Counted from the stretch's first letter, positions 51,101 to 54,100 are shown. The stretch is DNA of 64,000 nucleotides from Escherichia coli (GCF_045037415.1 NZ_CP173438.1), one strand, 5' to 3'. Program-made: the numbers.

Positions 51101-54100
51101 TGACCGGGATACTGTTTTTTTGCGCCAATGTGATCGCTTGTTGCAGAGCGGTATAATTTGTTTCGAGCTGCAGAAGTATGACATCAGAATTAATAATCGC
51201 TTCTTTCTGAATAGTTATTTCATCGGACGACATTGTCATGTTGGCACCGGGATAGATCGCAATAACATTATCGCCAGTACCTTCATTAACAAGGATCGTG
51301 GCAGTTCCGGTTTGCGTTTCTTTCGTTTGATAAATTATACTTTTATAAATCTTAGACGAATTCATAAAGTTGATCGCATAATCACTAAAGTGATCTGTAC
51401 CTACTTTTGTTATGAAATAAACATCAGTATCGGCAAAGCTTGCTGCCAGCGCTTGGTTACAGCCTTTTCCCCCCGGTGAAAATATAAAATTACTTGCCAG
51501 AAGCGATTCTCCGATAGTGGGAAGCCTCGGCAAATAACTGATGATATCAACATTAAACGAACCAATAACGCATACTTGACTTTTCATAGTTGAGTGGCCT
51601 TTTTTTATTCCCTGGGCTGTATCATAATTTTCAAGCGCATAAGCGATTTCATTTTTCGCAATAGTATCAAGCGAGTCTAGGACGATAAAAGCACCGCCAT
51701 GACATCGAGTCAGATAGCCAAGCCTGGCAAGTTCATTAAGATCTGATCGAATAGTTTCTTTCGTTACATTGAGGCTATTGGACAGATCGGATACTTTTAC
51801 AGAACCGAATTTACTGAGTCGTTTCAATATTTCATGATGGCGTTCAAATTTCATGCTTCACCTCACTTCAGTTACGTTAATATCTATCGATGTATATTGA
51901 TGTGATAATCACCATAAAGTGGCGGGGAAAAGCAAAAAAAAGCAAAAATAGCCTGAGAAAAGGTAAGCGTTAATGGAGAATCATATTGATGCTTATTTAT
52001 TGGTGAGAACTACGTTCCATGGCAGGAGTTCATCAATACGGTTGGAAGGTTATTCCGGCAGTACGCTCAGGATATGGCGCAGATACGCTTCCGGATCAAT
52101 GTCGTTCAGAAGGCAAGTGCCGATAAGCCCATACAACAGTGCACTGCGCTCGCCGCCGAAGAACATAAAGTTTTTATTTCCGAGACAGATGGCACAAAGG
52201 GCTTTTTCCGCGGCATTATGTCTGCCTCCGCCTGACCGTCAACACTGTAATAACAGAGTGCGCCCCACTGATTCAGTACACAGCTGAACCATTCACCCAG
52301 TCTGGATTTTTGGATAGCGTGGCATTTTTCTCCACCATGCATGCAGTGAGTCCAGTAACAGTTTGCTCTTCTTCTGCCTGACCACAAGATGTGCTGGACT
52401 GGTAAACGATGGGGATACCTGCTTACGCGAGAGCAATAAGTGGCTGGCCACAATTCTCGGTACAAAACTCTGCTGAATAGCAGCGATTTTCCCAGCGTGG
52501 TGCGTCGTTTGCATTTTACTGGTTCTAAGTTAACAATTATCTGTTCACTAATGACTACTCTAAAAACTTGTATCAGGACTATCACTTATTTAAGTGATAT
52601 TGGTTGTCTGGAGATTCAGGGGGCCTGTCTAGAGAGATATAAAGATACCTTCACCCCGGTGATGATAAAATAAAAGTATCTCAGCTATTAAACTGATGTA
52701 CGATTCGGGCAATAACTTATTCGTATAGAGCACCTTTTCTCTGGTGCTCTATACGAATAAGTTATTGCCCGAAATTAATTATATTGTTTATTATCAAACC
52801 GAGTTATAGCTTTTCTCTGAAAACTACCGAATAAAATATACTGATAGACTGCTGCCTAGAATTTCCAGATCAGGTGGGCTGCAAGTTGCAGACCGTTATA
52901 ATCATCGGTTGGGGTGTTGAACCACACTTTACCTGCCGTCAACCCGAGATTAAGTTGCTCAGTCAGCGGTTGAATTCGTTGCAAACTGATGCTCTTCATG
53001 CTGCCGTAGCGTGTTTCTGGCGTCCAGTCGTAGGTGTAAGCACCTGTTCCGCGGCTTAGCCATAGTTGCGTATAACCAGCACCGCGCGGGTCCTTCAGAC
53101 GCACGGAAATCATATTGCTATAACTACTACCTGCATCGCTGGAGTCATAATGGGTATAGCGGTAACTGGTGATCACCGGGCCAGTATAGAGTGATACGCC
53201 GCCTTGCCAGGCATTGACTTCGACATCATCGTAATATTTAGTGTAGCGATAACCGGTCGTGAAAAGCGTTTTTGGCAACAGGGCTAGGTTAATATCCTGT
53301 CGAAAATCCTGGCGGGCAAAGACCGGCGTATTATCCGCAAAGGCAATACCCGTTCGGGTTGTCAGCCAGTTATTCCATTTGTACCAGACTGCACCCTGGC
53401 CGCGAGTGGCATTGAAATGTTCAGTTTCATAATCACGACGCCCCTGGGAAAGATTAAAAAGCAGCGTTGCGTTTTCAACTTTTGCTACCAGTTCAGCATA
53501 CGCTAAATTACGGTTGCCATGTTCGCCAGAATAATCGGTAAAATCGTAGCCCGCGGTAATGGAAGTTAACCCGGCATAAGCGGGCAATGCACTAAAAAAA
53601 AACGGCACTAATAACGTATGCTTTATCATTTTAATCTCCTGTACGGATAAGTTCTTGTCGGAGTGAGTAAGTTCCACTAGGTAAATTACGTTCTACAATC
53701 ACGCGCGGGCCAAGTTGTGTGTTCGGAGAAATAATTCGCCCAGGCAAAATAATAACTTGTACGCCAAGGCGTGAACGCTTCCCGATATAACAACCTAATT
53801 TATCGCATCCGGTAGCGATAATTCCCTCTGGAGTTCGAACAGACACGGGTTGTTCATCCAGACGATGATTACTGGTACGTACTTGTGCGCCCAAATATGC
53901 CTGGTTTGCAACTACCGAGTCGGCAATAAAGCATTGCGGACCAATCGTTGCTTCCGCTTCAATAACCGCATTTTTAATTTCGGTGGCAAAACCAATTTTT
54001 ACGCCATTGCTGATTATTGTGCCAGGACGAATAAACGCATAATTACCTATCAGGCAGTTTGCGCCAATCACTACCGGCCCCTGAATAACGGCACCGTGGC

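Follow-up and report, generated by a model that had tools for sequence, protein, structure and literature searches.

A perfect 31-bp hairpin between convergent perC and yaiO-like genes of Escherichia coli, tentatively read as a transcript-end or insulating structure

In a stretch of 64,000 nucleotides of Escherichia coli chromosome (GCF_045037415.1, NZ_CP173438.1; hereafter "the window"), a perfect inverted repeat lies in the gap between a gene for a PerC-family regulator and a convergent yaiO-like gene. The repeat is a real, highly non-random, single-copy and lineage-specific stem-loop. As an explanation, we tentatively favor a transcript-end or insulating hairpin that serves the convergent perC and yaiO transcripts. 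The main rival is a palindromic relic without function. In this view, about 31 bp were duplicated in inverted orientation, once, in the perC-yaiO spacer of one cassette lineage, and the product has persisted because its small size makes it tolerable, with template switching keeping it symmetrical and local fragility as its chief effect. We regard this rival as possible but rather doubtful. Readings that invoke a protein-binding or recombination site, or a dispersed repeat family, fare much worse.

A long perfect inverted repeat between converging stop codons

A preliminary description of the window had noted perfect 30-bp arms around an 8-bp spacer, near the 3′ end of an exopolysaccharide-like operon. 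The repeat is indeed found there, just beyond the last gene of a polysaccharide-type cluster, and both its perfection and its 8-nt spacer are confirmed; each arm is, however, one base longer than described (31 nt, 100% complementary, without bulges). This is the longest and the sole long perfect inverted repeat of the window. When perfect stems with a spacer of up to 20 nt were sought in 30 first-order Markov versions of the 64 kb, the longest stem per version measured 9–12 nt, compared with the 31 nt observed. No further copy of an arm was found in the window when up to 3 mismatches were allowed. The RNA fold of the 70 nt reaches −55.0 kcal/mol on the + strand and −54.4 kcal/mol on the − strand (z of about −16 to −17), and 12 of the 31 pairs are G-C (39% G+C). 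A 31-bp stem is thus well beyond both chance and the canonical terminator, and its initial characterization as too long and too perfect for a terminator was sound.

The hairpin lies between converging stop codons. The stop codon of the PerC-family gene is 30 nt from the left arm, and 82 nt separate the right arm from the yaiO-like stop codon (52856–52858); the size given for the gap between the converging genes is 153 bp. The convergent pair is intact in plasmid pWP4-S18-ESBL-07_1 (L004) and in draft contigs L044–L051, where the PerC-family gene encodes 69 amino acids. In the window perC is truncated. Placement exactly between converging stops is what a transcript-end structure leads one to expect, and counts against the relic.

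Terminator-like features are probably confined to the perC sense

Examination of the sequences beside the stem suggests that the hairpin is terminator-like in the perC sense (+ strand) only. From one base past the stem, the + strand reads TTAATTAT, with 5 T in 8 positions, within an A/T-rich tail (Table 1). On the − strand, the side next to the stem reads TCGTACAT (3 of 8), and a U-rich run in the yaiO sense is found only after a small second hairpin, 28 nt further on. Together, this small hairpin and its U-rich run constitute a weak candidate terminator. The initial claim that no T-run exists on either strand therefore holds for uninterrupted runs, but fails to account for the T-rich tail TTAATTAT of the + strand and for UUUUAUUUUAU after the second hairpin of the − strand.

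A consensus terminator scan reported nothing at the hairpin. The scan counts no more than 20 stem pairs and would therefore look for the tail of this hairpin within the right arm, so that a stem of 31 pairs is beyond its scoring; the + strand tail TTAATTAT satisfies the scan's own rule of 5 T in 8. The short G+C-rich stem-loop that defines intrinsic terminators is not found here (31 bp, 39% G+C, 8-nt loop), while the position between convergent genes that is typical of bidirectional terminators is. Bidirectional intrinsic terminators between convergent E. coli genes are known from full-length RNA profiling and have stems of about 5–15 bp. The hairpin shares with them a single symmetrical structure with the potential to end transcripts arriving from either side, a short gap between converging stops and a T-rich tail on one side. 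Unlike them, it has a perfect 31-bp stem of 39% G+C, no A-tract/U-tract pair and no adjacent U-run on the yaiO side.

The hairpin is restricted to one cassette lineage

The element was searched by blastn in 5,426 complete E. coli genomes and in the plasmids of PLSDB. Matches were obtained in 848 of the 5,426 genomes, 834 of which carry the full element, always at one locus per genome; the two "places" found in each genome are the two strands of the same palindrome. The hairpin is also present on a few IncF plasmids. All matches inspected correspond to the perC/yaiO gene pair; the hairpin accompanies this pair both in B2 chromosomes and in IncF plasmids, and was found nowhere else. No K-12 record appeared among the matches listed. 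A total of 833 B2-type genomes are identical over a whole stretch of 329 bp, flanks included. In K-12 and most E. coli, yaiO is 93–96% identical at its 3′ end, and homology ends precisely with the stop codon, beyond which the sequences are unrelated. The possibility that the hairpin might be a conserved feature of the yaiO operon was rejected, as the regions that follow yaiO in K-12, Citrobacter and other variants are unrelated. A single locus, combined with unrelated sequence at other yaiO clusters, makes the hairpin specific to one cassette lineage; such specificity, with absence from all other yaiO clusters, is favorable to the relic.

Outside this lineage, the inner core of the hairpin was used as a pattern to scan 100,044 species-representative genomes, and no homologue was found: the 6 matches, roughly the number expected by chance, were all unrelated palindromes. 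Phage genomes gave no match to the element, and a phage origin was rejected on that ground. In Rfam, the only hit was a sub-threshold, generic match to the MIR6274 microRNA hairpin (47.8 bits, compared with a gathering score of 80). A survey of the literature on GI-cobU, yaiO and ibrAB found nothing about the hairpin.

These data refute, for E. coli, the view that the element belongs to a dispersed family, either REP/BIME, ERIC, Box C or a new one, or to miniature inverted-repeat transposable elements (MITEs); only its palindromic shape and intergenic position speak for membership. The REP, ERIC and Box C families are found across E. coli; the many copies and shared consensus by which such families are recognized are lacking here, as are the target-site duplication and multiple copies of a MITE (the flanks are GTACGA and ATTAAT). 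The BLASTN search proposed in the preliminary description, which had raised the idea of an unrecognized repeat, returned a single copy per genome confined to one gene pair, and neither the species genomes nor Rfam disclosed a relative. The hairpin is neither a repeat family nor a general trait of yaiO operons.

Two other palindromes were encountered in the course of this survey. The K-12 frmR-yaiO spacer (L003 3905–3965) contains a different, near-perfect long palindrome, tatactatagggggg...cccccctatagtata, whose sequence is unrelated to the hairpin and which is presumably the FrmR operator region. In a deltaproteobacterial metagenome-assembled genome (CP070843.1, L005 1778–1870), a chance match to the core lies within an unrelated and very long perfect palindrome, whose arms measure about 40 nt or more on either side of a 12-nt centre.

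The arms change together and the loop flips

Comparison of the B2 hairpin with that of plasmid L004 revealed two differing positions. These form one base pair, A-T in the B2 type and G-C in the L004 type, and the 31/31 pairing is kept. The chance that a second random change hits the partner position with the right base is about 1/61 × 1/3, roughly 0.5%. Because the hairpin of CNF2/Vir-type plasmids also has a C in the right arm, G-C is probably the ancestral state. A second compensatory pair that had been considered in the latter plasmids (TTCAGG/CCTGAA) was withdrawn, because the left TTCAGG comes from the coding sequence of ibrB and was brought there by a deletion. The hairpin has diverged as much as its flanks: the B2 and L004 types differ by 2 changes in 70 nt inside it and by 4 in about 147 nt outside, and for the type represented by L002 the corresponding values are about 13% and about 10%. 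Equal divergence is what a relic would show. The retention of 31/31 pairing in two lineages that are about 3–4% apart in their flanks argues, however, in the opposite direction.

The loop also varies. In draft contig L044, arms and flanks are those of the L004 form, but the 8-nt loop reads AGAGAAAA, the reverse complement of the standard one. The same flipped loop is found in FDAARGOS_1373, a complete B2 genome, with 100% identity over 128 bp and the same gene context. Among 832 complete B2 genomes, this is the only flipped loop, the other 831 having the standard orientation. Two independent flips are thus detected, one per hairpin background. De Bruijn-graph ambiguity at k ≤31 could be the source of the flip in L044, a short-read draft; an assembly artefact is less likely in the complete genome of FDAARGOS_1373.

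Template switching at E. coli palindromes is known to leave this combination, an inverted centre and arm changes that mirror each other. In the Ripley model, quasi-palindromes are template-switch hotspots in E. coli, and an intermolecular strand switch inverts the centre; hairpin-loop micro-inversions are likewise known in chloroplast spacers. The hairpin resembles these systems in that an arm change is mirrored and the loop occurs in both orientations with arms and flanks unchanged. Unlike the reporter assays for template switching, the evidence here consists of naturally occurring differences among assemblies (1 complete B2 genome of 832, and 1 draft). The mirrored substitution and the loop flips point to template switching between the arms, a process that would provide a mechanism for perfect arms without selection on each base. 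By revealing interaction of the arms at the DNA level, the flips agree with the relic.

Cassette forms and rearrangement breakpoints

In draft contigs L044 and L045 the genes form a compact unit, with ibrA, ibrB and perC (69 amino acids) pointing to the hairpin from one side and yaiO, an acetyltransferase gene and a GT2 glycosyltransferase gene pointing to it from the other. Four forms of the perC-yaiO spacer region were distinguished, and can be described as follows:

(a). The B2 chromosomal form has the sequence of the window.

(b). The L004 form differs from the B2 hairpin at the two positions that together make one base pair.

(c). In CNF2/Vir-type plasmids (L002, L015, L026; about 16 plasmids), a deletion has removed all of the left arm but its inner 13 nt, which now follow directly on the 3′ end of ibrB. 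A 13-bp stem is left, and its sole non-Watson-Crick pair is C·A on the + strand and G·U on the yaiO-sense strand, a detail that speaks for the transcript-end reading.

(d). In pMTY9754_IncFIB-I (L028) and metagenome contig L016, neither the hairpin nor perC is present. An ISL3-family transposon (transposase, permease, ArsR) ends at what would be the outer edge of the right arm, exactly at window position 52774 (L016 248/249, L028 9352/9353). No 8-bp target duplication is present, so that a later rearrangement is likely.

Concerning form (d), the ISL3 junction at the right arm admits two explanations: insertion targeted beside the hairpin and followed by an adjacent deletion, or coincidence.

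Breakpoints are therefore found inside the left arm (the L002 deletion), at the right boundary (the ISL3 end) and 72 bp to the left, where the tip of an insertion sequence (IS) relic resembling the left end of IS2 cuts the PerC-family gene at 52631. The clustering of breakpoints at the hairpin, and the loss or shortening of the hairpin without loss of the flanking operon, are both expected of a fragile relic.

Gene order differs between replicons. Plasmid L004 (L004 1–12088) has ibrA, ibrB, a TonB receptor gene, IS fragments, a truncated ibrB, perC, the hairpin, the yaiO cluster, a recombinase gene and RepB. On the B2 chromosome (window 52632–64000) the order is truncated perC, hairpin, yaiO cluster, ibrA, ibrB and TonB receptor gene. 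Judging from these arrangements, the ibrAB-perC/yaiO cassette has undergone repeated shuffling, for which IS elements are the probable cause. Upstream of PIG-L on L004, a 22-bp inverted copy of the right flank was considered as a repeat that might bound the cassette; it is absent from the window and A/T-rich, and hence probably due to chance.

The perC alleles are variable in their own right. Those found beside ibrAB share the first 47 residues or so (to ...YCLxQIS) and then have unrelated C-terminal tails of varied lengths; DNA homology between alleles ends at that point, L004 position 5912 (L004 5770–5979; L011 5070–5339; P0076–P0089). This pattern suggests either a recombination hotspot or a modular C-terminus. 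The view that the perC tail is a chimeric junction was rejected, as a 77% identical allele located directly after ibrAB in contig L035 has the same C-terminal tail. Contig L035 (sample DRR089065) ends 8 nt past the perC stop, so that any hairpin beyond would not be visible.

A recombinase or protein site is improbable

A further reading is that the palindrome is a protein site acting at the DNA level, bound by a recombinase, by PerC or by the ibrAB products (ParB/sulfiredoxin-like IbrB and PAPS-reductase-like IbrA), and involved in moving or regulating the cassette. It draws on the 31/8/31 geometry, on the constant proximity of ibrAB and perC to the hairpin in the cassette, and on the difference between chromosomal and plasmid gene orders. 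We consider it improbable for the following reasons:

(i). The annotation of the corresponding 64 kb in strain SK1144 includes neither a tyrosine nor a serine recombinase, in agreement with the preliminary remark that no recombinase gene is nearby. A plasmid Xer-like tyrosine recombinase located 5 kb from the hairpin might be invoked, but its gene sits beside RepB, scores below every NCBIfam cut-off, and also occurs beside a diverged, hairpin-less yaiO cluster (L031).

(ii). Neither a second copy of the element nor a partner site was found in the window. None of the context changes between chromosome and plasmids breaks in the spacer; breakpoints are beside or within an arm. Furthermore, perC tail, hairpin and yaiO are contiguous in every intact context, which makes the hairpin internal to the unit rather than a boundary.

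(iii). Similarity to loxP, proposed for the outer part of each arm, was not supported. As in loxP, an asymmetric spacer of 8 bp separates inverted arms, each of which contains ATAACTT...CGTATAG. Unlike in loxP, the arms measure 31 bp instead of 13 and the string is interrupted by a 3-nt insertion. On either side, GAGCACC (7 bp) intervenes between block and spacer, and the blocks are therefore separated by 22 bp instead of 8. The weak local alignment score of ATAACTT[ATT]CGTATAG was reached by 34 of 5000 composition-preserving shuffles of the arm, in a comparison chosen post hoc. Given the wrong block spacing and the lack of a partner site, of a recombinase and of a context break in the spacer, the suggestion of a tyrosine-recombinase-type site found no support.

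(iv). To our knowledge, a synaptic invertase complex cannot invert a segment of 8 bp.

Other site types were compared by their defining traits. Likeness to Xer/dif or cer was rejected: GGTGC...TTAT in the right arm, compared by eye with the consensus, has only about 7/11 matches to the XerC arm and 4–5/11 to the XerD arm. Integron attC sites have extrahelical bases and RYYYAAC/GTTRRRY boxes; here the pairing is perfect, without bulges, and the closest strings, CAATAAC/GTTATTG, do not match these boxes. Protelomerase sites lack an asymmetric centre, while the hairpin has a non-palindromic 8-nt spacer and no phage match.

A related and very doubtful proposal is that the palindrome is a functional DNA site of the ibrAB-perC/yaiO cassette, recognized or processed by IbrB/IbrA, or used as a target for hairpin-dependent recombination or insertion. 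Were it true, the breakpoints and the ISL3 end exactly on the hairpin would be explained, and the loop flips would mark regular extrusion of the hairpin in vivo.

Genomic setting

The window is of the phylogroup B2 kind, and the identical sequence is found in Nissle 1917, 536, UTI89, ATCC 25922 and ST131 strains. The locus belongs to a genomic island flanked by the his/yee region and by cobUST/tRNA-Asn, and is distinct from the yaiO locus of K-12; its yaiO-like gene is a paralogue. Features and gene order are given in Table 1.

Table 1. Features at the hairpin (window coordinates) and order of elements in the island
Feature	Position	Strand	Order in island	Remarks
PfkB kinase		−	1
IS66 relic			2
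IS2-like (IS3-family) left-end relic	52458..52631	−	3	83% to IS2 positions 1–175; terminal 55 bp 54/55
PerC-family regulator 3′ remnant	52632..52673	+	4	last 13 codons and TAA; converges on hairpin
U-rich run and small hairpin	52665..52701	−		hairpin 52676–52701 (−8.6 kcal/mol), then UUUUAUUUUAU 52665–52675; just downstream of large hairpin, yaiO sense
Left arm of perfect inverted repeat	52704..52734	none	5	TTCGGGCAATAACTTATTCGTATAGAGCACC
Asymmetric 8-nt spacer/loop	52735..52742	none	5	TTTTCTCT
Right arm of perfect inverted repeat	52743..52773	none	5
A/T-rich tail after hairpin	52774..52794	+		ATTAATTATATTGTTTATTAT; terminator-like for PerC-sense transcript
yaiO-like outer-membrane beta-barrel gene	52856..53629	−	6	last of PIG-L deacetylase/GT2/acetyltransferase/YaiO cluster
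Acetyltransferase		−	7
GT2 glycosyltransferase		−	8
PIG-L deacetylase		−	9
Gap			10	about 1 kb
ibrA		+	11
ibrB		+	12
TonB-dependent receptor	59324..61498	−	13
IS4 relic, then cobUST			14

A second palindrome mentioned in the preliminary description (52581–52598, atcacttatttaagtgat) is present, but it lies inside the IS2-like left end; since it belongs to that terminal region, it was ruled out as a separate feature.

Additional repeats were observed elsewhere in the window. Imperfect inverted and direct copies of a motif of about 22–30 nt (AATAACATTGATGGAGATCACT...) are clustered at 17542–17669, with a transposase fragment on one side and, on the other, the DUF957/yeeW end of a prophage remnant resembling CP4-44. 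The TonB-dependent receptor gene is preceded by a palindrome that resembles a Fur box, aatgataattattatcatt (61505–61530), and about 180 bp beyond it by an 18-nt, 94% inverted repeat, TCCACGGACCGTACTCTT / AAGAGTGCGGTCCGTGGA (61677–61717).

Discussion

The 31-bp symmetry, the mirrored substitution that preserves pairing, the place between converging stops and the constant gene pair argue for a nucleic-acid hairpin over a protein site, and hence favor a transcript-end or insulating function; a dimeric protein site would need far less symmetry than 31 bp. A tentative scenario is that, in the mobile cassette with the layout ibrA-ibrB-perC → hairpin ← yaiO-acetyltransferase-GT2-PIG-L, transcription of either gene would permit formation of the 31-bp stem in RNA. 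The stem might then act as a transcript-end structure, either as a termination or pause hairpin or as a barrier to 3′ exonucleases, and a perfect stem of more than 20 bp would also be a potential substrate of RNase III. The outcome would be insulation of the two convergent transcription units. In the perC sense the T-rich tail would then be terminator-like, and in the yaiO sense the small second hairpin and its U-rich run might contribute. In the window, perC has been destroyed by the IS2-like insertion, and only a role on the yaiO side could still operate.

A precedent for transcript control by a long 3′ hairpin is found in the sib/int retroregulation of phage lambda, where RNase III cleaves such a structure and controls the stability of the upstream mRNA. 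Like sib, the hairpin is a perfect stem of more than 20 bp, a size accepted by RNase III, downstream of a coding region. Unlike sib, it has an unrelated sequence, its cleavage would be hypothetical, and no alternative read-through transcript is known.

Concerning the DNA itself, the variants observed suggest that the arms may exchange information by template switching or by recombination within the palindrome. Such exchange would transfer a change from arm to arm and, now and then, flip the 8-nt loop, so that perfect symmetry need not mean selection on every base. The tendency to form a hairpin would, in addition, make the spot prone to rearrangement.

Several observations weigh against a transcript-end role. 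No long hairpin was found downstream of yaiO in K-12, Citrobacter, the 77%- and 81%-identical variants or the others inspected. The yaiO cluster is intact in forms (c) and (d) despite partial or total loss of the hairpin, which indicates that the full hairpin is dispensable for the cluster. In the yaiO sense there is no canonical U-tract, and the 39% G+C stem is far longer than those of E. coli intrinsic terminators. Conversion at the DNA level would account for both the mirrored change and the loop flips, with no need for a function. Finally, the 833 B2 copies, identical over 329 bp, are uninformative on constraint.

The preliminary view of a relic or cruciform-forming element is a live option, in the form of a relic able to adopt a hairpin or a cruciform. 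Against a relic without function, any transcription of the region will produce a 31-bp RNA stem, and some effect on the transcript is hard to avoid. We retain the transcript-end or insulating hairpin as the best explanation, tentatively.

Altogether, a striking feature of a virulence-associated B2 island, carried by Nissle 1917, 536, UTI89 and ST131, is cleared up as neither a hidden recombination site nor a new repeat family. As a natural perfect palindrome with concerted arms and a flipping loop, it is a possible marker for template switching in population genomes. If the hairpin ends or destabilizes transcripts, it would set the expression boundary of an uncharacterized surface-polysaccharide-type cluster.

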